Shown one piece after another: positions 3,600-57,489 of a stretch of DNA of 64,000 nt; the stretch's first letter is position 1; the number at the start of each line of letters is the position of its first letter. The DNA is from Candidatus Poribacteria bacterium. Lineage in GTDB: Bacteria > Poribacteria > WGA-4E > WGA-3G. The notes under the pieces were generated by a model. That model ran no database searches. It was not told the DNA's origin and worked only from the letters and a program-made list of their open reading frames with translations. Made by a program: the position numbers and the translations under genes. The stretch covers positions 3,589,052 to 3,653,051 of the forward strand of contig OZ242381.1 of assembly GCA_965209095.1 (NCBI GenBank), read 5' to 3'.

Positions 3600-3903
3600 G
3601 GGGGCGTAAAGTTTTTGGCACAGAGATACAAACTTCTGTTTTCTTTAGTCCCGTAGGGACGATATGTTTATAGAAAACGTCATGTACAACCTCTTTAGTC
3701 CCGTAGGGACGATATGTTTATCTTTCTATGCCGTTCCTACGGAACTCAAGAGAGGTGGTCCACATTTTTTCTATAAACATATCGTCCCTACGGGACTGAA
3801 GAACATAATGCAAAAGTTATAGTGTATAAGACAACGCCAAAGTAGGAACAATAAGGCATCCGGCAATATTTACAGATTCTTTTGCCAAAAACTTTACACA
3901 CCC
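3600..3903. mobile_element. MITE, GGGTGTGTAAAGTTTTTGGCA TIR family (IS256/Mutator-like), carrying CCCGTAGGGACGATATGTTTAT REP-like units
   Basis: 21-bp TIRs (left copy slightly degenerate) and a perfect 9-bp TSD ACTTTAAGG at 3591-3599 and 3904-3912; no transposase inside. Confidence 0.85.
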
Positions 3904-4707: not shown

Positions 4708-5244
4708 ATGACAGAAGATAAATTCCTTGAACTCATCCGAAAACATCAAGATAAAATATATCGTCATGCTTTTTATCTACTGAAAAACAGTGAAGATGCG
4801 AAAGACATGGCACAAGAAACATTTATAAAAGCATGGCAACATCGCGCTAAACTCAGAGAGGACACAGCGCACTCATGGATGCTGAAATGTGTTCAAAATT
4901 TCTGTTTCAATCAACTCAAACGCCGTAAGTTTCAGGTGCATTTAGATGAGGAAGAAGATGAAACGCTTGAGATACTACTGCATTCTTATTCATATCAGTC
5001 AAACCCAACCCCGGATGAAATTGCTATCAGACAAGAACTTAAGCTGTTTGTGAGACAAGCGATTGAAGAATTACCACCAGCCATGCGATCAACAGTCGTC
5101 ATGCGAGAATTTGAGGAAATGAGTTACAAGGAAATCGCGAAGGAATTGAAACAACCTGAAAACAGTGTTAAATCAATGTTATTCCGTGCTCGTAAACAAT
5201 TACGTGAGATATTAGATCGCTTATTAGAGGAGACAGAAGTATGA
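4708..5244 (+). CDS. ECF (sigma-70 group 4) RNA polymerase sigma factor
   Basis: Region 2 AKDMAQETFIKAW...SWM; region 4.2 MSYKEIAKEL...SVKSMLFRARKQL; start moved to the ATG after CGGAG. Confidence 0.92.
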   Translation: MTEDKFLELIRKHQDKIYRHAFYLLKNSEDAKDMAQETFIKAWQHRAKLREDTAHSWMLKCVQNFCFNQLKRRKFQVHLDEEEDETLEILLHSYSYQSNPTPDEIAIRQELKLFVRQAIEELPPAMRSTVVMREFEEMSYKEIAKELKQPENSVKSMLFRARKQLREILDRLLEETEV

Positions 5245-6047
5245 AACCGACAATCATGATACTCGGCAGCGGACATTTAGCAAATCCCGGTAAGGATACA
5301 TTCAATGTAAGAATGGATGATGTGCTTGCTCCAAAACGACAAAAGGAAATCAAACTGCTGGTTTCACAACTTAAAGAATTTCGCCCTACCAAAATTGCAC
5401 TTCAAGCAGACAAAAGATATGATTCAGAGGTCAATACAGACTATCAAAAGTATCTGGAAGACGTTTACCAACTCAAACAGTGGGAACATGATCAGATCGG
5501 CTTTCGGTTGGCGAAGCAGATGGGGCATCCGAAAGTATATTGTGTTGATTTTTGCCCTGAGCATGATCCGTTTTTCCCAGAAGACCTTGACCCAAATTTG
5601 TTAGACATAGACAAATACGCCACAGAAAACAACCAAGAACATCTTCTTCCTAAAATAGAGGATTTTGATATTCCAGAAGGAAAAATCCACCAAGAAGAAG
5701 ATGGAAGAGTCTGGATTGAACCTAAAAAGTATGAATCAATCATTGACATGTATATACGGTATAATCAACCTGAAGGCAGGTTCGCTGATCATCAGTCATA
5801 CTTGCGGATGTCCAAAGTCGGCATAGGCAACCAATATCCTGGAGCGAATTGGGTTGGGAATCACTGGTACCCACGAAATCTCAAAGTCTTTGTCAACCTG
5901 ACGCGAATTACAGAATCTGCTGAGGATAGGATATTAGTGATTATCGGGGCAGGACTTGTCTATCTGATTCAGCAGTTTATTGAGGACTGTGGGGATTACA
6001 TCATTGAAAGTCCCCTAAAATATATAAAATCGGAGGAAGTTAATTAA
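5241..6047 (+). CDS. DUF5694-family protein (TraB/Tiki/ChaN-like fold), probably catalytically degenerate
   Basis: TIMILGSGH, QIGFRLAKQMGH and WYPRNL motifs; ALQ and GAGL where the paralogue has ALE and GGGH. Confidence 0.75.
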   Translation: MKPTIMILGSGHLANPGKDTFNVRMDDVLAPKRQKEIKLLVSQLKEFRPTKIALQADKRYDSEVNTDYQKYLEDVYQLKQWEHDQIGFRLAKQMGHPKVYCVDFCPEHDPFFPEDLDPNLLDIDKYATENNQEHLLPKIEDFDIPEGKIHQEEDGRVWIEPKKYESIIDMYIRYNQPEGRFADHQSYLRMSKVGIGNQYPGANWVGNHWYPRNLKVFVNLTRITESAEDRILVIIGAGLVYLIQQFIEDCGDYIIESPLKYIKSEEVN

Positions 6048-6859
6048 TGAAACATAAAACGAAACCAACAATCATGATTCTTGGCAGCGGACACTTTGCT
6101 AATCCTGGATTTGACGCATACAATTACAGAATGGACGATGTGCTTAGTCCTAAACGTCAAAGCGAGATAAAACAACTGGTTGAGTTACTCAAACCGTTTC
6201 GGCCCACCAAGGTGGCACTTGAAATAGACGAAAGGTTTGACGTTGAAACTCAAACGGATTATCAAGGTTATCTCAACGGCACTTATGAACTCAAACGGGG
6301 TGAAGGGGACCAGATCGGTTTTCGGTTAGCAAAACAGATGGGACATCCGAAGGTATACTGTGTTGATTATTTCCCTGAGAAAGACCCGTTTTTTCCAGAA
6401 GATTTTGACTCAAATTTATTGGATATTGATAAGTTTGCTAATGAACATAATCAAGAACACCTTCTACCCAATGTAGAAGACTTCTTTACTGGTGAAAACG
6501 TGGAATTCCAGGAAGAGGAAGACGGTAGAGTCTGGATTGAACCTAAGGAATACGAATTGATTATCGACATGTTCATACGGGGCAATGAACCTGAAGGAAG
6601 AAGTGCCGAACATCGGCTATACTTACAGATGGCACAAGTTGGATTAGGAAAACAGTATCCTGGAGCGAATTGGGTTGGCCATCAATGGTATACTCGCAAT
6701 CTCAAAGTCTTTGTCAATCTAACACGCATTACTGAATCTACTGATGATCGTATCCTCTTGATTATCGGTGGTGGACATGTCTATTTGGTGCAACACTTTC
6801 TTGAGGCTTCAGGCAATTATATTGTAGAAAATCCACTAAAGTATCTGAAACCGAAATGA
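6047..6859 (+). CDS. DUF5694-family protein, tandem paralogue with intact motifs
   Basis: Collinear with the upstream gene; GSGH, VALE, WYTRN and GGGH present; TAATG overlap. Confidence 0.78.
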   Translation: MKHKTKPTIMILGSGHFANPGFDAYNYRMDDVLSPKRQSEIKQLVELLKPFRPTKVALEIDERFDVETQTDYQGYLNGTYELKRGEGDQIGFRLAKQMGHPKVYCVDYFPEKDPFFPEDFDSNLLDIDKFANEHNQEHLLPNVEDFFTGENVEFQEEEDGRVWIEPKEYELIIDMFIRGNEPEGRSAEHRLYLQMAQVGLGKQYPGANWVGHQWYTRNLKVFVNLTRITESTDDRILLIIGGGHVYLVQHFLEASGNYIVENPLKYLKPK

Positions 6860-10041: not shown

Positions 10042-10193
10042 AGAGCGTATCTCATAAATCTTATGCAGGTCGGGGTCTCTGTGCCCCGCCATGTCTAATA
10101 TACCGAAATAACGGCGGGGCACAGAGACCCCGCCCTACATTGAAGTTGGATTTCTGAGTTGAAATAGGTTAATCTATTTATGAGATACACTGT
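10042..10193. mobile_element. MITE with AGYGTATCTCATAAAT TIRs enclosing an inverted REP pair
   Basis: 16-bp TIRs at 10044-10059 and 10176-10191 with TA close to both ends (IS630-like, inference); internal GGGGTCTCTGTGCCCCGCC and its inverse. Confidence 0.65.
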
Positions 10194-11492: not shown

Positions 11493-11550
11493 CAAATCAA
11501 CGCCAAATGCGCTTGGACGAATACGCGTTTGGTATTCGTCATGATTTGTC
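11493..11550. mobile_element. 58-bp YAAATCAACG-headed insertion splitting a REP
   Basis: Removing it restores AAACATATCGTCCCTAC|GGGACT, seen intact at 3775-3796. Confidence 0.7.
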
Positions 11551-12348: not shown

Positions 12349-12805
12349 AACCCAAGTTGCCACTTAAACAATATAACCTCCCGCTAAGATCGTTCAGAAT
12401 TTTGGCACATACCGCTCCGCTGGAGCGGAAGAATGAAACGATGTGCGTGCTATAGACATATCGCTCCGCTGGAGCGAAAGATTGGACATCACGCGTAGAA
12501 AGGGTGAAGCCGTGCAATAGGTGGCAACTTGGGTTTGAATATTATCTTTCTTGACAAAAGCGGAAGAATGAAACGATGTGCGTGCTATAGACATATCGCT
12601 CCGCTGGAGCGAAAGATTGGACATCACGCGTAGAAAGGGTGAAGTCGTGCAATAGGTGGCAACTTGGGTTTGAATATTATCTTTCTTGACAAAAGCGGAA
12701 GAATGAAACGATGTGCGTGCTATAGACATATCGCTCCGCTGGAGCGAAAGATTGGACATCACGCGTAGAAAGGGTGAAGTCGTGCAATAGGTGGCAACTT
12801 GGGTT
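12349..12805. mobile_element. 187-bp MITE (TIR AACCCAAGTTGCYAC, 5-bp TSD TGAAT) whose right part plus flank is tandemly repeated as three 135-bp units
   Basis: TIRs at 12349 and ending 12535; units start at 12431, 12566 and 12701; a single-copy relative lies at 53430-53615. Confidence 0.85.
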
Positions 12806-12812
12806 TGAATAT

Positions 12813-13156
12813 GGGTGTGTAAAGTTTTTGGCAAAGGTTATCTCACATTCAGACACATCGTAGGGGCGAGGGGACCTCGCCCTATAAGCGTCAATTTAGG
12901 GATATATCTTCTTGTGGGAGGGGTTTCTAACCCCGATAAACATTTTAAATTCGGACAAAATCGGGGTTAGAAACCCCTCCCACAAGAGAAAATTCAGCAA
13001 CTTTTTCTTAAATTGACGCTTATGGGGCGAGGTCCCCTCGCCCTCGTTGGAACACAGCCTATCCATCAGCAGGGGTTGGGATGGAAATGTGGCAGGGGTG
13101 GTAATCGGGCGGGGAGACCCCGCCCCTACGTGTAGTGCCAAAAACTTTACACACCC
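12813..13156. mobile_element. GGGTGTGTAAAG-TIR MITE with REP cargo and a nested 142-bp MITE
   Basis: Perfect 21-bp TIRs; flanks TTGAATAT and ATGAATAT (7/8 match); backbone matches the reverse complement of 30960-31144. Confidence 0.85.
12883..13024. mobile_element. 142-bp MITE (TIR CATAAGCGTCAATTTAAG)
   Basis: Near-identical copy of the same length at 37308-37449; both sit beside a GTAGGGGCGAGG REP. Confidence 0.8.
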
Positions 13157-18700: not shown

Positions 18701-18868
18701 CAGGACTTACGCAGTTTCTCTTAAAGTCCCCTTGATAAGGGGGATTTAGTAAATCAACGCTACAAATGCCATTAAGGCATTTGGCGGGGTTAAATCACTA
18801 AAATATCATTGAAATTATGCCTTTTTAACCCCCCTACCCCCTTATCAAGGGGGAATGCGTAAGTCCTG
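18701..18868. mobile_element. CAGGACTTACGCA-TIR MITE (132 bp plus a 36-bp insertion)
   Basis: Perfect 13-bp TIRs; 5-bp TSD CAATA. Confidence 0.9.
18750..18785. mobile_element. 36-bp YAAATCAACG hairpin element
   Basis: Absent from the sister MITE at 20944-21075, which is exactly 36 bp shorter; stem CAAATGCC/GGCATTTG. Confidence 0.85.
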
Positions 18869-20943: not shown

Positions 20944-21075
20944 CAGGACTTACGCATTCCCCCTTGATAAGGGGGGTAGGGGGGTTAAAAGTCGTGATTT
21001 CAATGATATTTCAGTGATTTAACCCCCTAAATCCCCCTTATCAGTGGGACTTTAAGAAAGACTGCGTAAGTCCTG
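20944..21075. mobile_element. CAGGACTTACGCA-TIR MITE, 132 bp
   Basis: Perfect TIRs; 5-bp TSD TATAT; internal CCCCCTAAATCCCCCTT-type REP pair. Confidence 0.9.
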
Positions 21076-38727: not shown

Positions 38728-41700
38728 ATGAGGTGGTTTGTTTTGATTCGATTGCTAAAATTTGTTTACATTTTATCATTGGTTTTCTGCATTAATATAG
38801 TTGAGTACGCAGCAGCATTTGAACAGATGAAAAGTTACACTGTAGCAGATGGTCTGGTAGGTCCTATAGTACCTATTATTTACCAAGATAGTCGTGGTGT
38901 TCTTTGGTTTGGTTCAGATAGAGGTGGTGTCAGTAGCTATGATGGTAATAATTTTGTTCCTTATACTGACTTTGTTGTTAATGATAATGAGAAAACCGAA
39001 GAGTTCCGCGGCAGAACTAAAACTATTGTTGAGGATAAGTGGGGGTATATTTGGTGTTTGAGTAAACATCCGGCAGAAGGTAGCGGTGTTATCAGTAGAT
39101 ATAATGGAACAGATTTTGAAAAGATATCTGTTGGCAATTGCTTAGCTGTAGATAATGGTGGAGATATTTGGGTTGGTAGTGACAATGCAATTACACGTTA
39201 TAAATCACTCAACATGCAAGATCCTCCATTAGAATTTACACAAGTTATTAGTGGTGCTTCTGTTGCCATAATCAATGTAATTTTTCAAAGTAAAGACGGC
39301 ACATACTGGATAGGTGGACACGATGCAAAAGGTGCGCTAATTATGAAGTTCCACACTGATCTGAATATGTGGCAAATTGGAAACTTAGAACGGGTTGAAA
39401 ATATTCCAAATGCTCCAAAAGACCGTGCGATACAGACGATTATGCAAGACCGGAATGACGTTCTCTGGTTTGGGGGGCAATCACTACTATTTAGTTATGA
39501 TGGCGATCAATTCAAGGATATACTTAGCACATCTACAGAGACACAAAGCGGGAAACCTCAAACGACTACTTTTAATGATGAGACAAATGTATCGGTAAAG
39601 AGCGATGTATACGGAAGAATATGGTACAGTGATAATAGACAATTGAGTTGGTGGGATGGTAATACACTAAAACGTTTTAGAAAATATAACCCAAATTCAA
39701 CCCAAAATATGTATATGCAAGGTTCCTTTGAAATTGAAGATGCGTGGAACAATCTATGGTTTGCATCTGAAATGGGAGCTCATGCTTATGACAGCAAGTA
39801 TTTTGAAGAAGAAGAGAACAGCCTCTTTCAATTGGAGGCAGCACAAACTGAGTCTACAGCGTTACAACCGAAAGTATACGGAGTTGACCGTGGACTCGGC
39901 AGTGACAATATTATCACAATTTTTGAGGCGTTGGACGGTAAAATATGGTTCGGTCATGACAACGGTGTGACATCTTATGAACAACAACCTGTCATTGTGA
40001 ACCACACAACCCGAACAATATTGGGCAGCAATAGTGTTAGATTGATGGAATCAGATAGTACTGGAACTTTATGGCTAAGCATTCCGGGCGGTGTAGCACA
40101 ATATCTTGAAAGTGAAGATTTACTTACGCAACACAATTTAACAAACTTTGTTTATAGGTCTGAATCATTCAGTATTGAGATTAACTTTGATAACAATCCG
40201 AATTTAAATAGACGCACAGAGATATCACATATTTTTGAAGCAGATGGTTATATCTGGTTTATTGATAAACCTATTTTATCTCAAGAGCCACTTACATTAT
40301 ACAGAATTTTCCGATATAAAGATGGAAAATTTGAAAAGCACTCACTTTTCATACAGGCAGATATTGGTCCTGGAGGAGATACAATTCACGTTGATTCGGA
40401 ACCAATTGTTACTTCAAGCAAGGCCCCTTGGATTGTAATAGGAGGGTGGGTTTTCTTACCAAGAGGGAACGGGATGCACCGTCTTTTACCAGATGGCAAA
40501 ATCCGAAGAACATCGTTTAATTCCACAGAAGCATTACCCTCACCATCTGCAGCAGTAACTGCACTTCACACTGACAAACAAGATAGACTATGGTGCTATT
40601 ATGACGATGGAAATGTCAAACGATTTTCAAATATAACGAGACGTGAAAATTATGTGGGAGGTAATATCCACACCGAAGTACTGCAACTCAGTTCTGTCCT
40701 TCCTGTTATAGGTAATTCTGAAACGAATGTAGTCCAATGGTTTTACAATACAGTGAGTGGACAGTTGATGTATTGGCAGAATCCTGACAACAGAAATACA
40801 TTGACAGAACTTCCCGGAGCCGCAAGCGGTGCACCACTATTGGCTATTCAAACTACTTCATCTTCTCAAGGCACTTCTGAATCAGTTATTTTAGTTTTTC
40901 ATGACGGTATTAAAACATATCAAGGTGCAGAGTTGAGAAACGCTGTTTCTGTTGTAATTGAAAAGGTTAATGGGGCAATCACATCTACTGATGGTAATCT
41001 TTGGTTAGCTACATCACAAGGAGCCATCCAGTATAATGAACAGGAAGCCATAACATACACAACAACTACAGACGGTTTCCTTGTTGATGACTTACGTGAT
41101 GTCCATGAAGACCATTGGGGTAATATATGGTTTGCTACATGGGGTGGTGGTGTTGTCAGATATGATGGCAACGCATTCCAATCTGTTACGACCAAGGACG
41201 GGCTCATCCACAATAACGTATCAAGTATCCATGCTGCAAACGAAAAGGAATTGTGGTTTGGTACTGAAGGTGGAGCAACGCAGTATCGTGCAAATCTTGG
41301 GGCACTACCGTTTTGTCGTATCGTCTCTGTTGATGCAGGCAAGTCGTTCACTGAACCGTTTAGTAAAGAAACTGGTAATCAGATGATTACTGAAATTGAA
41401 GAACTGCTTCCCGCACACCTTAAAGATATAACTATCCATTTTCAAGGTATAAATCCACTCCGAGATGAAATGGAATATAAATTTAGATTAATTGGAATTG
41501 ATGACATTGTATGGTCAAGCATTCTATCTGCTGAGCAACAGGTTTCCAGTGAAAGAACTTTAGGTGGAGATGTACAGCAGTTTTATCAGCCACAACAGAT
41601 AGGTGAAACGGGCAGCTTTCCAAATATTCGTTATGAAGGCTTAAAATCAGGGAAATATACTTTTATGATAAAAGCGTTTCGTAAAGGGTGGCCCTATACA

Positions 41701-42621
41701 CAACAACCTGCGGTCCTAAATTTTACCATTGATCAGCCAATTTGGTCTCGATGGCGTAATTATCTCCCAACTCTGATTTTTGTGGCCGCAGTGGGTTCAT
41801 TGCTCTTTAGATTGATCGTAAATAGAAGACAGACGGCTCAATTACAACTTGAAATGCGTGAGAAAGAAGAGGCAGAAGTTCAACGAATACGGGCTGAGTT
41901 GAATGAAGCACAAAATATACAAACGGGGCTCCTGCCTATTGAAGCTCCAGATACAAGTGATTTTGATATTTCAGGTAGATCAATTCCCGCTACACAAGTG
42001 GGCGGTGATTTCTTTGACTATTTGACTGTGGCAAACGGGCAAACTGCAATCGCTGTTGCTGATGCTGCTGGTAAAGGTATCCGTGGTGCCATGAATGCGG
42101 TGTTAACAAACGGTATGCTACACGAAGTCGCACGATATAAATCTGAGGCGGATGTCATACTGACCGATCTCAATGCAGGTTTGTCCCCACGTATGTACGG
42201 CCCCAGTTTTATTGCTCTCAACTTAGCAGTCCTGAATGAATCCGATAAAAGTGTCGATTATGCAAACGGTGGACAACCTTATCCTATTCTCAAAAGAGGG
42301 GATCAAATCATTGAAATTGAGACCAGCGATCTTCCGTTGGGAAGTAGGAAAAACGTCGAATATGAATCTGCTACATTTGATCTAAATGAGAATGAATTTT
42401 TGATCTTTCATTCCGACGGTTTGATTGAAGCCCTCAACTCACAACAGGATATGTACGGAACAGAAAGACTAAACGATCTGATTGCAAAGGTCCCAAGTGA
42501 AAGTAGTGCTGAAGAAATGATACAGCATATCTTTGACGATGTGCAGGAATTTGTTCAGGAGGCAGAACAATACGATGATATGACGCTTGTCGTTCTCAAG
42601 CGGATATCGGTGTCTGAATAA
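38728..42621 (+). CDS. Membrane sensor: two-component-regulator beta-propeller, Y_Y_Y-like domain, TM helix, PP2C/SpoIIE phosphatase
   Basis: Repeated DxxGxLWFG; YEGLKSGKYTFMIKA; VGGDFFDY, ADAAGKG, SDGLIEA, DDMT. Confidence 0.88.
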   Translation: MRWFVLIRLLKFVYILSLVFCINIVEYAAAFEQMKSYTVADGLVGPIVPIIYQDSRGVLWFGSDRGGVSSYDGNNFVPYTDFVVNDNEKTEEFRGRTKTIVEDKWGYIWCLSKHPAEGSGVISRYNGTDFEKISVGNCLAVDNGGDIWVGSDNAITRYKSLNMQDPPLEFTQVISGASVAIINVIFQSKDGTYWIGGHDAKGALIMKFHTDLNMWQIGNLERVENIPNAPKDRAIQTIMQDRNDVLWFGGQSLLFSYDGDQFKDILSTSTETQSGKPQTTTFNDETNVSVKSDVYGRIWYSDNRQLSWWDGNTLKRFRKYNPNSTQNMYMQGSFEIEDAWNNLWFASEMGAHAYDSKYFEEEENSLFQLEAAQTESTALQPKVYGVDRGLGSDNIITIFEALDGKIWFGHDNGVTSYEQQPVIVNHTTRTILGSNSVRLMESDSTGTLWLSIPGGVAQYLESEDLLTQHNLTNFVYRSESFSIEINFDNNPNLNRRTEISHIFEADGYIWFIDKPILSQEPLTLYRIFRYKDGKFEKHSLFIQADIGPGGDTIHVDSEPIVTSSKAPWIVIGGWVFLPRGNGMHRLLPDGKIRRTSFNSTEALPSPSAAVTALHTDKQDRLWCYYDDGNVKRFSNITRRENYVGGNIHTEVLQLSSVLPVIGNSETNVVQWFYNTVSGQLMYWQNPDNRNTLTELPGAASGAPLLAIQTTSSSQGTSESVILVFHDGIKTYQGAELRNAVSVVIEKVNGAITSTDGNLWLATSQGAIQYNEQEAITYTTTTDGFLVDDLRDVHEDHWGNIWFATWGGGVVRYDGNAFQSVTTKDGLIHNNVSSIHAANEKELWFGTEGGATQYRANLGALPFCRIVSVDAGKSFTEPFSKETGNQMITEIEELLPAHLKDITIHFQGINPLRDEMEYKFRLIGIDDIVWSSILSAEQQVSSERTLGGDVQQFYQPQQIGETGSFPNIRYEGLKSGKYTFMIKAFRKGWPYTQQPAVLNFTIDQPIWSRWRNYLPTLIFVAAVGSLLFRLIVNRRQTAQLQLEMREKEEAEVQRIRAELNEAQNIQTGLLPIEAPDTSDFDISGRSIPATQVGGDFFDYLTVANGQTAIAVADAAGKGIRGAMNAVLTNGMLHEVARYKSEADVILTDLNAGLSPRMYGPSFIALNLAVLNESDKSVDYANGGQPYPILKRGDQIIEIETSDLPLGSRKNVEYESATFDLNENEFLIFHSDGLIEALNSQQDMYGTERLNDLIAKVPSESSAEEMIQHIFDDVQEFVQEAEQYDDMTLVVLKRISVSE

Positions 42622-42625
42622 AATT

Positions 42626-42759
42626 CGGGACTTAGGCATTTCCCCCTTGATAAGGGGGGCAGGGGGGTTAAATAGTGCGAAATTTCAGTGTCTTTAGTCT
42701 TGTTAACCCCCTAAATCCCCCTTATCAAAGGGACTTTAAGAGAAAATGCGTCCGTTCCG
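42626..42759. mobile_element. CAGGACTTACGCA-family MITE variant
   Basis: Internal sequence matches the 132-bp copies; flanked by a TAAAATT direct repeat. Confidence 0.75.
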
Positions 42760-42771
42760 TAAAATTTTAAT

Positions 42772-46829: not shown

Positions 46830-47410
46830 TGAAAAAACGGATACTTGGAGGTGTTATAGCACTTTTCATTGTTGCCGTGGTGGCAGCCTTCTATCACCAT
46901 AAAACCGATATTGAAGAATTCCAGTGGTATCGGCATTGGGATGAAATAGACCTCTCTACCATCAAAAGAGATTATCAACCTTTCACCGTCCCAGAAATGC
47001 AAGAAATGTGGTCCGATGAGCTGATTATTAAATATGGTGGATCAGAAAGATTCGGACAGTCAATCGGGAAGGCAGTTGACGTTTACCCGCAAAACACGTT
47101 TCTTGCACGCATGCTTGAATTAGGTAGACCTTTTGTTGACTTTTCGGATTATGAAGATACCCTGACAAATCAACGGGTAACGTTATATTCCACACGGGTT
47201 TACTGGGAAAGTATGAGTGCAGCAGAACGGGCAATTTATCTTGCACAGCGCGGTTTTCCACCTGATGCAACTTGGGAACACTATGAGGAAGTCCTGCTTA
47301 AAAATGAAGTTGTTCACAGTATCAATTTCTGGCTTTCAATTGAGCAGGACCCTTATATGAATGGTACAATATTGACAGGACGGACGCAGTTTCTCTTAAA
47401 GTCCCACTGA
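46829..47410 (+). CDS. Hypothetical membrane-anchored protein; C-terminus encoded by a MITE
   Basis: TAATG coupling; last codons lie within the element starting at 47376. Confidence 0.75.
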   Translation: MKKRILGGVIALFIVAVVAAFYHHKTDIEEFQWYRHWDEIDLSTIKRDYQPFTVPEMQEMWSDELIIKYGGSERFGQSIGKAVDVYPQNTFLARMLELGRPFVDFSDYEDTLTNQRVTLYSTRVYWESMSAAERAIYLAQRGFPPDATWEHYEEVLLKNEVVHSINFWLSIEQDPYMNGTILTGRTQFLLKSH

Positions 47411-51217: not shown

Positions 51218-51253
51218 CAAATCAACGGTATGAATGCCATTTAGGCATTCCCC
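51218..51253. mobile_element. 36-bp YAAATCAACG hairpin element
   Basis: Removal restores GGCAC|GGAGACCTCGCGCTAC, similar to GGCACAGAGACCCCGCCCTAC near 10118; stem GAATGCC/GGCATTC. Confidence 0.8.
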
Positions 51254-53201: not shown

Positions 53202-53328
53202 TGTGCGTCCTTATTTAATTTAATGTGAGATGATGTTAAAGTTTTCCAATGTATATTATATTATGAATATGTGCTATGGTCAAGATGACTTTAAATCTGA
53301 TTATTTTTATGCAATTCTCCCGTAGGTC

Positions 53329-53364
53329 CAAATCAACGGTATGAATGCGCGTATGGCATTCACC
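53329..53364. mobile_element. 36-bp YAAATCAACG hairpin element
   Basis: Removal restores the GTAGGTC|GGGTAGAGGAACGAAACCCGAC hairpin; an uninterrupted inverse relative is at about 53965-53993. Confidence 0.85.
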
Positions 53365-53429
53365 GGGTAGAGGAACGAAACCCGACATGATAACCACAAG
53401 CAATTTGCCCAGTTACTTTTCATTAGATT

Positions 53430-53615
53430 AACGCAAGTTGCTACCTAAACAATATAATCTCCTACTAAGAGCGTTCAGAATTTTGCACATACCGCTCCGC
53501 TGGAGCGGAAGAATGAAACGATGTGCGTGCTATAAACATATCGCTCCGCTGGAGCGAAAGATTGGATATCACGAGTAGAATGGCTGAAACTGTGCAATAG
53601 GTAGCAACTTGGGTT
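53430..53615. mobile_element. 186-bp MITE (AACCCAAGTTGC-type TIR)
   Basis: 5-bp TSD AGATT; homologous to 12349-12535. Confidence 0.85.
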
Positions 53616-53618
53616 AGA

Positions 53619-53873
53619 TTACTCCATTAATCCCTTGATTAGCCATTTCACAATTAGGAAGATAAACCAATATACGACTAACGCTAACCATGTGCTTACA
53701 AAGCCTATGAAACCAACGATACATGGAATAACTAACCAGTCGAATGGGAAATCAAAACCGTACTCATGTAAGTTGTTCCATCCAATCATAAAGCAGATAA
53801 CTGCAATTATTATAGAGATTATCCATGTCAATCTAATCGTGAATTTACGCCAATTCAAATTGCGGATGTTCAT
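53619..53873 (-). CDS. Small hypothetical membrane protein
   Basis: Two hydrophobic helices; start uncertain. Confidence 0.55.
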   Translation of the reverse strand: MNIRNLNWRKFTIRLTWIISIIIAVICFMIGWNNLHEYGFDFPFDWLVIPCIVGFIGFVSTWLALVVYWFIFLIVKWLIKGLME

Positions 53874-54036
53874 AAAGATATCAGGGGCGGTTGCATGCCC
53901 ATTCCTCACTTATAAAGGTTAGTAGGGTTTCATGTGTCTTATCTTCCATGCTCTGTCACGCAACATGTCGGGTTTCATTCCTCTACCTGTCCTGCGAAGA
54001 ATCGTATAATATGATATGATATATAGATGACAACGA

Positions 54037-56370: not shown

Positions 56371-56515
56371 AGGAATTTTAGGTGGTTATTGCCCCATTGA
56401 TGTAAGGACTGTGTATATTGTGATATTGATGATTACTACGGATCAAATCAACTTATGTTAGAATTAACAATTCTATATGAATCATCATAAGTCTGTCAAT
56501 TGAAATTCAAATCTG

Positions 56516-56552
56516 GGGTGTGTAAAGTTTTTGGCACTAACTTTACATACCC
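56516..56552. mobile_element. 37-bp minimal member of the GGGTGTGTAAAG family
   Basis: GGGTGTGTAAAGTT...AACTTTACATACCC with perfect 9-bp TSD TCAAATCTG. Confidence 0.85.
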
Positions 56553-57489
56553 TCAAATCTGTCCAAAACAAATGACACGATTTATAATTGTTAATCCGAT
56601 ATAGTATAGACTTTGTTTATTTCTCATAAATTCATTGATTCTTTGTGTCTTTGAAATCGTACCGTATTGTGCGTTTTTTCGGATTACGGTACGGTTTTGG
56701 TGCGGTTTTTCGTACCGGGTTGTGAGTCCAGTCTGTGTATGGGTTTGTGATTGATTTTTTGTGCGAATTTCTGGCAAATTCAATTTTTTAAAACGGTACG
56801 TTTTGTGATTTAAGTTTTTGGTGTTTTGAAATGTATTATTCATAGTATAGGTAGATAGCATCACAACCAATGTGATGAACGTATCATTTATAGAGTCAGT
56901 TTGTGTAGTTCTTTTTACGTATTGTGTTAACATTGCATTTCACCTACGGGATTTGATTTTATGCGATAAGAACTGCAACTGGGCAGCAAAAAGTGGACAA
57001 AACGTGGAATGCAAAACCCAAATTGGCTTGACAAGTTCCAGTTTTACAGACTGGTATTTTCGCAACAAAGGCATGGATTGACCAATTGCTGAGATGCTGC
57101 GTTTTCTCAGAAACTTCCATGACTCTATGAGATTTTAGATGACATATTCGTACGGGTATGTCCGTAATATCACATGGATCCTGTTGTAATTGTATTTTAA
57201 ACCCCCATTCAAAAGAAATTACAATTGGGATTTTAATGTTAATCAGTTTATGACGAGACTGATTTGCATTTATGTGAAAGTTTTTTGGACATTAGATTAG
57301 GTTCCGTTGCTGTCATCAGTCAACGGTGGACCTCCCGCGACTTCGTGAGAATTTTTGCGATGTTTTTCGTGTTATTTTTACCATTCTATAGATAATTATC
57401 TCATTTAGGATTGCAATTCTTCGGGACACAAACTATGAAGTTTGTGCTACAAAAATGATCTATTATATATTAGAAATAGTATTATTGCG

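Follow-up and report, generated by a model that had tools for sequence, protein, structure and literature searches.

Candidatus Poribacteria genomes carry an abundant family of 34-36-nucleotide hairpin sequences that are very probably non-autonomous insertion elements

Genomes of Candidatus Poribacteria contain an abundant family of repeats of only 34-36 nt, each composed of a variable nucleotide (x), a head that does not vary and a hairpin whose stem covaries, and these repeats, which are also present in sponge metagenomes, are very probably Poribacteria-wide, non-autonomous insertion elements. The elements sit precisely and in oriented fashion in other sequences, without target duplication and immediately 5' of a G, mostly at C^G (the caret marks the point of insertion). 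We examined the family starting from four members in a 64-kb stretch of Poribacteria DNA from contig OZ242381.1, referred to here as the window. A sequence-only reading of this stretch had reported three 36-bp copies and a 58-bp variant, and all four are present where it placed them. Its proposal of a distinct minimal mobile element, for which a mobilizer was not found, survived all the tests that were run, and recent activity is not thereby established.

The three 36-nt copies all lie on the plus strand. Copy 1 (18750-18785) reads TAAATCAACGCTACAAATGCCATTAAGGCATTTGGC, is followed by GGGG, and is inserted at tag^gggg in a MITE (miniature inverted-repeat transposable element); its x is T (18750), its head is AAATCAAC (18751-18758), and its 27-nt hairpin (18759-18785) runs G-C, TA bulge, CAAATGCC, loop ATTAA, GGCATTTG, G-C. 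Copy 2 (51218-51253; CAAATCAACGGTATGAATGCCATTTAGGCATTCCCC, then GGAG), in which x is C, has the commonest sequence of the family and is inserted at cac^ggag, a site in a hairpin loop; this hairpin, of the GTAG type, resembles repetitive extragenic palindromes (REPs) and carries GTAG on the minus strand. Copy 3 (53329-53364; CAAATCAACGGTATGAATGCGCGTATGGCATTCACC, then GGGT) also has C as x, with a 7-nt loop, GCGTATG, and a closing T-A pair, and interrupts the 5' arm of another GTAG REP-like hairpin at gtc^gggt (cGTAGgtc^gggtagagg...aaacccgac). Against a covariance model (R1) derived from aligned relatives the three copies score 54.7 bits (E = 1e-13), 56.9 bits and 59.4 bits, respectively, with E values from 5e-15 to 1e-13, and a repeat search places them in a single family, D12 (77-85% identity over 39 nt). 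The 58-nt feature (11493-11550, plus strand), which scores 25.9 bits (E = 2e-5), has C as x and a head at 11494-11501, and lies at ccctac^ggga, followed by GGGA. It shares the head and terminal stem of the other copies, as had been claimed; rather than a longer version of the element, it is a nested composite, in which the outer stem GCCAAAT...ATTTGTC carries in its loop a head-less 25-nt hairpin (11516-11540; GACGAATAC GCGTTTG GTATTCGTC). When the composite is folded its head base-pairs with the 3' end, and two-tier forms of this kind were seen again in nine other loci. Folded as single-stranded DNA, the hairpins of the window have energies of -5.7 to -8.4 kcal/mol, with z scores of -1.7 to -4.7 relative to shuffled sequences. 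A scan of the 64 kb with model R1 found no members beyond these four. The exact string AAATCAACG occurs five times in the window, four of which are the features just described; the fifth, at 47167, was rejected as a chance match, lying inside a coding region and having no hairpin. A known RNA family was likewise ruled out, as a scan of the window with Rfam gave no match at the gathering threshold.

A census of 1.86 Mb of fetched DNA (loci cited as L001 and so on) together with the window yielded 308 non-redundant canonical copies, all without terminal inverted repeats (TIRs) and all of the same order: x, the head AAATCAAC, and a hairpin that opens with G and closes with C. The variable nucleotide is C in 184 copies, G in 74, T in 46 and A in 4, and the total length is 36 nt in 228 copies, 35 nt in 39 and 34 nt in 41. 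The common hairpin form, of 27 nt, consists of G-N, the TA bulge, an 8-bp stem, a 5-nt loop and N'-C, a 7-nt loop on a stem of 6-7 bp being the alternative; a short form of 25 nt lacks the TA bulge, and in a MAFFT alignment the 2-nt gap of the short class falls exactly at the bulge. The head is nearly invariant, with at most 3 of 66 distinct model-aligned copies deviating at any position, and a search for the hairpin that was blind to the head found the exact head in front of 134 of 161 matches. The start of the element had been given as YAAATCAACG; this is borne out for the head, and the first nucleotide, rather than being a fixed Y, varies with the preceding target base.

The stem shows extensive compensatory change. 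In an alignment of 40 distinct sequences, pairing holds in 90.8% of cells, and changes on both sides occur at 6 of 10 pairs (for example, pair 10-34 is GC in 18, CG in 14 and AU in 4, and pair 13-33 is UA in 16 and CG in 10). The covariation score, the percentage of paired cells and the double-change counts of the real alignment were equalled by none of 500 shuffles, and its count of further pair types by 49 of 500. When the partner column was slid by 1-3 positions as a control, pairing fell to 30-46%. Altogether the stems contain 582 Watson-Crick pairs, 9 G-T and 2 A-C. The compensatory exchange of A-T for G-C first noticed between the window copies is real and belongs to a family-wide covariation. 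Hairpin variants with flipped loops also exist (ATTAA/TTAAT; GCTATATGGC versus GCCATATAGC in L001), and L036:1990-2034 is a perfect 45-nt palindrome composed of the head, the 5' stem and their reverse complement (AAATCAACGGTATGAATGCC TAAAT GGCATTCATACCGTTGATTT), which looks like a snap-back or inverted-duplication derivative. This full-length palindrome is the only clearly symmetric form of the element that was seen.

The host of copy 1 provides an uninterrupted counterpart within the window. This MITE (18701-18868, plus strand; TIR CAGGACTTACGCA) is 168 nt long, that is, 132 + 36 nt, and its sister (20944-21075, minus strand) is 132 nt long, so that the reported difference of exactly 36 bp stands. 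The sister is uninterrupted at GATTTAG^GGGGTT and constitutes a paralogous empty site for copy 1; a partial third copy of the MITE (42703-42761, minus strand; repeat family D16) is uninterrupted at the same sequence. Once the 36 nt are removed, host and sister, at 132 nt each, differ by 13 mismatches, and the 36-mer is thus present in one of two ~90%-identical MITEs. Since the junction tag^gggg permits no other boundary, copy 1 has no target site duplication (TSD), and the same copy (tag^T...C^gggg versus tagggggtt) excludes both a 1-nt TSD and the inclusion of the 3' G in the element. The host MITE is missing from the orthologous intergenic site in L120-L123, relatives with 93-95% protein identity, and the sister MITE is missing in L122; the absence of both full MITEs from these sites indicates that the two, the host of copy 1 among them, arrived recently in the lineage of the window. 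The insertion sites of the MITEs are marked by a TA/TATA-type duplication, and members of this 132-nt family carry, besides the TIR CAGGACTTACGCA, internal CCCCTTGATAAGGGGG palindromes. For the other hosts, four uninterrupted CGTCCCTAC^GGGACT copies of the hairpin type that hosts the 58-mer lie at 3647-3797 and represent paralogous empty sites, and an uninterrupted relative of the host of copy 3 lies at 53967-53996 (minus strand; 4 mismatches in 30 nt). The sequence-only reading had assigned every host an uninterrupted relative in the window, which holds for three of the four; for the host of copy 2 the relative in the window is weak (8 mismatches, at 10111), and better ones are found in other Poribacteria loci.

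The same relationship extends across the family. We joined the 12 nt to the left and the 12 nt to the right of each element under 25 definitions of its boundaries and sought the resulting 24-mer elsewhere in the data. Cutting out x, head and hairpin restored an uninterrupted paralogue for 173 of the 308 copies within 2 mismatches and for 141 within 1. Other frames of equal net length scored 165 and 171, as expected when the first and last bases are both C, and frames implying a TSD or another length restored at most 55 copies. The insertion therefore has a fixed length and no TSD, in agreement with the absence of TIR and TSD reported before. The flanks of the 308 copies fall into 84 clusters, many of them singletons in unrelated repeats. 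This diversity of flank contexts and the 173 restored sites show that the host repeats do not contain the motif as a built-in component. The length of the element is nearly fixed, and a G follows it in 260 of 308 copies (most of the others abut another element).

Counted by cluster, the targets are C^G in 45, A^G in 15, T^G in 6, C^C in 6, G^G in 5 and others in 7, and the base before the cut is C in 53 of 84. The junction had been described as C^GGR; it is essentially C^G, and CGG, CGC and CGT all occur. Exact sites include gtccctAC^GGGact, acaaagcAC^GCC, cgtaggTC^GGGtag, gttcctAC^GGAact, cagcacAC^GGC and cattccCC^GGG. Many of the hosts are REP-like hairpins headed by GTAG, which form mosaics like those of bacterial interspersed mosaic elements (BIMEs; L053:3480-4540), and others are MITEs; in L016, a tandem host array contains three empty and two filled units. 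GTAG-headed REP-like hairpins, such as CGTCCCTACGGGACT, cattGTAGcgcggggtctccgtgccccgcc and cGTAGgtcgggtagagcg...aaacccgac, are abundant both in the window at 3647-3797 and in L053:3480-4540, forming BIME-like mosaics. They would imply a system of the REP-associated tyrosine transposase (RAYT) type in Poribacteria; no matching RAYT-type gene was located in the loci examined.

Two features of the junctions depart from simple insertion of a constant block. The identity of x depends on the target base that precedes it: after C it is C in 47 clusters, G in 5 and T in 1; after A it is G in 10, T in 8, C in 1 and A in 1; and after G it is T in 3 and C in 2. In addition, A or C follows the cut in some empty paralogues (AA^ACC, CGC^ACC, CCG^ACC, TAT^AGG, AGG^AGG) where the filled sites show G. 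The element also inserts into itself, both in its own 7-nt loop (gaatgcGC^GTAtgg) and in its own head. Some 24 self-nested arrays have the form x-AAATCAA-G-AAATCAA-C-hairpin-G-hairpin; AAATCAAG-AAATCAA occurs 29 times and AAATCAAC-AAATCAA not once, and deletion of the inner G-head-hairpin from an array leaves an outer head that ends in G, not C. Because the hairpins of an array are usually of different subtypes, the arrays are not local duplications. Head-less units of G plus hairpin occur only directly 3' of another hairpin, apart from three exceptions with degenerate heads. In L042 and in L100 an entire array of 72 nt occupies a canonical GC^GT site, which indicates that composites can act as units. 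An octamer stutter, (AAATCAAG)n, precedes the head in L001:4695-4840, L076, L042 and some 20 further loci, and additional head-less hairpins behind the element often correspond to it.

The distribution of the family was surveyed with a pattern of 19 bases, AAATCAACG-N5-AATGC-N7-GCATT. In a collection holding one genome per species it matched at least 113 loci in at least 31 assemblies, at least 30 of which are named Candidatus or uncultured Poribacteria; the remaining assembly among the matches listed is a Clostridiales metagenome-assembled genome (MAG), in which the stem is absent. In metagenomes the pattern found at least 120 loci with at least 134 canonical copies, on contigs of a few metagenome series, and some of these contigs are identical to contigs of Poribacteria MAGs. 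Twelve non-canonical metagenome matches that were listed lack the closing stem pairs and come mostly from other sample types (e.g. a human-gut assembly); they are chance matches. Viral carriage was considered and rejected, as the pattern had no match in a collection of viral contigs. Proteins encoded in the window are 93-100% identical to Poribacteria proteins, its GHMP kinase is 96% identical to a CAXXTN01 protein, its PDZ/HEAT protein is itself recorded from a 5.44-Mb contig, and its GC content of 41% is similar to that of the fetched loci. Within the first 100 loci, which span 776 kb, model R1 has 208 matches at E <= 0.001, and the density in the window, 4 per 64 kb, would extrapolate to a few hundred copies in a 5.4-Mb genome. 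The copies are largely intergenic (152 of 157 lie outside open reading frames (ORFs) of at least 150 aa). The same 36-nt consensus is found in species whose genes are only ~75% identical, which points to a conserved trans-acting partner. Neither the sequence of the element nor an account of Poribacteria repeats was found in the papers that were searched.

Past insertion is demonstrated by these data, and any current activity would have to be inferred. That the element is mobile is suggested by its paralogous empty sites and by the lineage-specific occurrence of its hosts. No difference between filled and empty states was found in relatives at the flanks of the GHMP kinase (L114-L119, 93-96% protein identity), which lack the entire repeat block and so carry no information on the 36-mer, or at the flanks of copy 1 (L120-L123), which lack the whole MITE; nor was one found at species-level loci, which at ~75% identity are too diverged and in which synteny breaks (L049-L095). 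Presence/absence polymorphism had been suggested as a check, and a comparison between near-identical metagenome and MAG contigs revealed no indel of the element: all 58 head matches in aligned stretches are identical, although most of the pairs are 100% identical assemblies and some of the 58 are chance matches. A different small repeat does show strain-level presence/absence polymorphism, a 149-nt MITE-like block (aacctaagttactacc...ggtggcaacttaggtt) that distinguishes L114:3790-3940 from L115, which come from two assemblies with an identical GHMP kinase.

How the elements were inserted is a matter of weighing several readings. The one that we favor, taken as a whole, joins the element family with handling of the HUH/Y1 kind, and we give it somewhat less than an even chance. 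We are tentative, and on balance doubtful, about its mechanistic component, that an enzyme of the HUH/Y1 class acts in trans on the single-stranded head plus hairpin. According to this proposal, the element strand would fold when the DNA is single-stranded, and a chromosomally encoded enzyme acting in trans would read the head and bulged hairpin by shape. The enzyme would make one cut behind the closing C of the element and another behind a C in a single-stranded target, and rejoining of the cut ends would leave no TSD. The head would serve as the sequence-specific handle of the protein, which would explain an invariant head across species next to a covarying stem. Both cuts do fall after C, and many of the targets would fold in single-stranded DNA. 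Moreover, in REPs and at the ends of IS200/IS605 insertion sequences a guide or tag is conserved directly 5' of the foot of an imperfect hairpin, and both are processed as single-stranded DNA without TSD (PMC3479197). It is such a guide that HUH/Y1 enzymes of the IS200/IS605-RAYT type recognize, and the strand specificity of the element and its preference for foldable targets accord with that.

A number of observations weigh against this reading. The flank list shows no conserved upstream bases past the C before the cut, and guide-target pairing in the style of IS608 was rejected on inspection, as target base -2 does not track stem position 10 or 34. The dependence of x on the preceding target base, the G at filled sites whose empty paralogues have A or C, the stuttered and nested arrays, and the head-less G-plus-hairpin units tied to a preceding hairpin are not expected under conservative cut-and-paste. 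IS200/IS605 transposition requires distinct left and right hairpins, whereas the element has one, its right end being the hairpin foot. REPs, in turn, are thought to move as inverted doublets, whereas the element is mostly single, in direct tandem or nested. In informative contig pairs (97.5-99.9% identity) seven head matches are all conserved and none is polymorphic. The bias in orientation relative to co-directional flanking genes is weak (49 antisense versus 28 sense, among copies that are not independent). A replication-strand bias was considered separately and rejected, as no clean switch was seen among 13 copies on chromosome OZ244889.1, for which the position of the origin is not known.

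The search for an enzyme also weighs, weakly, against HUH/Y1 handling. No Y1/RAYT-like ORF was found by phmmer at E <= 1 among 8,773 ORFs in the 1.86 Mb around 260+ seed copies, a weak negative, as the probes (IS200 TnpA, E. coli RAYT and a COG1943-like protein) were approximate, and a single-copy gene flanked by few of ~400 copies would be expected about once in such a sample. Pfam revealed no mobilizer among ten small ORFs of the window, clustering of the ORFs around elements revealed no recurrent transposase, and the repeat-dense stretch L053:3400-4560 contains no gene. A likeness to integron attC sites was considered as well and rejected: AATCAAC fits RYYYAAC at 6 of 7 positions, and insertion does not take place at G^TT.

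The junction asymmetries are the most interesting lead, and they bear on a second explanation, which we regard as unlikely yet a serious competitor, namely that the element is inserted by copying. A nick in the target would prime a polymerase or reverse transcriptase, which would copy an RNA or single-stranded DNA template; the 3' end would be defined where the primer anneals to the terminal template G, and completion of the 5' end would be imprecise. Such a mechanism accounts better than cut-and-paste for the constancy of the 3' end, where the closing C is followed by G (260 of 308), for an extra 5' nucleotide that varies with the target base, for a G after insertion where the empty paralogue has A or C, and for nested arrays. 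The head stutter (AAATCAAG)n and the head-less units would resemble 5'-truncated or template-switched copies, and G-T mismatches on the head strand outnumber A-C ones, if weakly (9 versus 2). Elhai et al. reportedly favored an RNA intermediate for the small dispersed repeats (SDRs) of cyanobacteria. On the other hand, no candidate enzyme, reverse transcriptase or other, emerged, the scarcity of wobble pairs (~1.4% of pairs) sets the element apart from typical structured RNAs, and the window has no match to an Rfam family. The truncations, too, are discrete (head or none) rather than graded, and the odd junctions may represent rare variant targets, or composites that spread later as units, as with the 72-nt array of L042 and L100. 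In a related but slightly less likely version, copying or priming machinery of an undescribed kind, an enzyme or an RNA-protein complex, might insert a hairpin cassette of ~35 nt at CpG in folded single-stranded DNA, and would itself write the 3' G and the target-dependent 5' nucleotide.

It is improbable that the element has no mobility of its own and is a structural or protein-binding module that entered a few repeats once, was spread solely by amplification of these hosts, and was carried from one repeat to another by recombination or gene conversion. Some flank clusters are large and of a single subtype (all gcgaggttaggaaG... copies have G as x, and all cattgtagcgc hosts contain a GCTTATG loop), which indicates that composites amplify as units; near-identical contigs keep their sites, with none of seven head matches polymorphic, and a consensus that is identical across ~75%-identical species would fit selection on function. 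Such spread is nevertheless difficult to reconcile with 84 different flank contexts, of which many are singletons lying in unrelated repeats, with exact restoration of an empty site for 173 of 308 copies, with insertion into the element's own loop and head, and with filled and empty units side by side in one tandem array, and gene conversion fails to explain a block of fixed length at CG in non-homologous contexts. Finally, double-stranded site-specific recombination, in which an IS110/IS1111-type or a tyrosine or serine recombinase would act in trans on REP hairpins, is very improbable: although elements of the IS110/IS1111 type leave no conventional TSD on insertion and REPs are the target of some (Tobes and Pareja 2006, cited by PMC3116915), and some junctions have G on either side of the element (G core G), reminiscent of a crossover core of 1 nt, the general mechanics of DNA would not let a double-stranded circle as short as 36 bp form, the 5' junction is mostly C rather than G, the covariation of the hairpin points to a folded single strand, and no recombinase gene was noticed adjoining the elements. 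Hitch-hiking on host repeats and double-stranded recombination both fit the data poorly.

The window contains several other repeats. A 135-nt unit is present in three tandem copies at 12424-12828 (the second and third 99% and 88% identical to the first), with a fourth copy 40 kb away at 53504-53638 (84% identity); the unit contains the hairpin CGCTCCGCTGGAGCG (families D1 and D6), and an ORF that runs across the tandem repeats (12394-12834) has no credible Pfam match. Inverted pairs of GGGTGTGTAAAGTTTTTGGCA (families D8 and D14), ~170-330 nt apart, look like the TIRs of another MITE family and occur at 3598-3622/3883-3908, 12811-12835/13136-13161, 30958-30982/31124-31149 and 56514-56557. A direct repeat of ~820 bp with 73-76% identity (5243-6803) covers two paralogous genes that adjoin each other (5241-6047 and 6047-6859). 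The intergenic DNA upstream of the GHMP kinase (53202-54036) measures 835 nt versus 119-279 nt in relatives, the extra sequence being largely nested repeats. A gene with a SpoIIE domain adjoins the GHMP kinase in relatives and lies ~9 kb away in the window (38728-42621), a displacement that indicates local rearrangement.

To our knowledge, elements this small that clearly insert have been described once before, as the SDRs of Nostocaceae in 2008. A second, unrelated phylum with exact insertion free of TSDs, self-nesting and a covarying hairpin suggests a general phenomenon rather than a cyanobacterial oddity. The Poribacteria data set is the richer one, with copies estimated in the hundreds for each genome, an 8-nt head that does not vary, a simple CG target, and dozens of genomes at species level, complete chromosomes among them, and it makes the question of the mobilizer testable by phyletic profiling and oligonucleotide biochemistry. 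Furthermore, the elements and their GTAG-REP and MITE hosts explain much of the variation in intergenic length between close Poribacteria, and they will confound the assembly and strain comparison of sponge-symbiont MAGs. Should the undescribed copying machinery be real, the same class of mechanism might explain the SDRs of cyanobacteria, and the element would be among the smallest self-contained insertion substrates, with a head and hairpin handle small enough to engineer.

Among known systems, SDRs come closest in behavior. Elhai et al. are said to have found SDRs in 2008 within minitransposons, tandem short repeats and their own copies, with some families sharing a hairpin that has compensatory changes. 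Like the element described here, SDRs are very small dispersed repeats of well under 100 nt, and their precise insertion free of TSDs, their nesting in themselves and in minitransposons, and their hairpins with compensatory changes all recur in Poribacteria. The earlier comparison with very small cyanobacterial repeats is therefore apt for behavior. A cyanobacterial origin of the window was rejected on the genome scan and the protein matches, and because the genome belongs to Poribacteria, SDRs are an analogue rather than relatives shown by sequence. SDRs measure 21-27 nt, in contrast to 34-36 nt for the Poribacteria element, and they are reported solely from Nostocaceae (PMC5861425), whereas the element is found in Poribacteria MAGs. 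SDR5 sits between nucleotides 3 and 4 of the highly iterated palindrome HIP1 (PMC4390886, PMC5861425, bioRxiv 10.64898/2026.06.24.733823), and the mobilizer and function of SDRs were still not known in 2026 (bioRxiv 10.64898/2026.06.24.733823). The 8-nt head, the bulged hairpin closed by G...C and the CG target are not known to be features of any SDR, a distinction drawn from descriptions of SDRs, not from their sequences.

In structure, the closest likeness is to REPs and the doublets that they form (REPINs), which are imperfect palindromes of 20-40 nt, intergenic and present in hundreds of copies per genome (PMC3479197, PMC3733652), as the element likewise is a short, imperfect palindrome, intergenic and in high copy. 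REPs also have a conserved single-stranded tag on the 5' side of the hairpin foot, compensating variation in the stem, mosaic arrays and vertical persistence (PMC3479197, PMC3733652). The tag of the element, however, is the 8-nt AAATCAAC with a foot at C^G, in contrast to the GTAG or CGTC of REPs; clean insertion with identifiable empty sites is not described for REPs; and in these genomes GTAG-tagged REP-like hairpins are the targets of the element. With IS200/IS605 it shares the lack of TIR and TSD, and this group further has imperfect hairpins in subterminal, strand-specific position, each with a guide 5' of its foot, transposes as single-stranded DNA by peel-and-paste and integrates beside a short specific sequence. 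Even miniature forms of IS200/IS605 are still at least ~100 nt long, and their target is a defined tetra- or pentanucleotide confined to the 5' side, whereas the sole constant of the element is CG and its 5' junction varies. MITEs such as Nezha, Correia/NEMIS and the host with the CAGGACTTACGCA TIR are likewise non-autonomous, intergenic, multi-copy and foldable, but they are 70-300 bp long with TIRs and TSDs, have neither in common with the 36-nt element, and serve as its targets. The element is thus not a MITE, having no TIR or TSD, and not a miniature IS200/IS605, having one hairpin; its closest behavioral analogue is the SDRs of Nostocaceae and its closest structural analogue the REP, and it lacks defining features of each.

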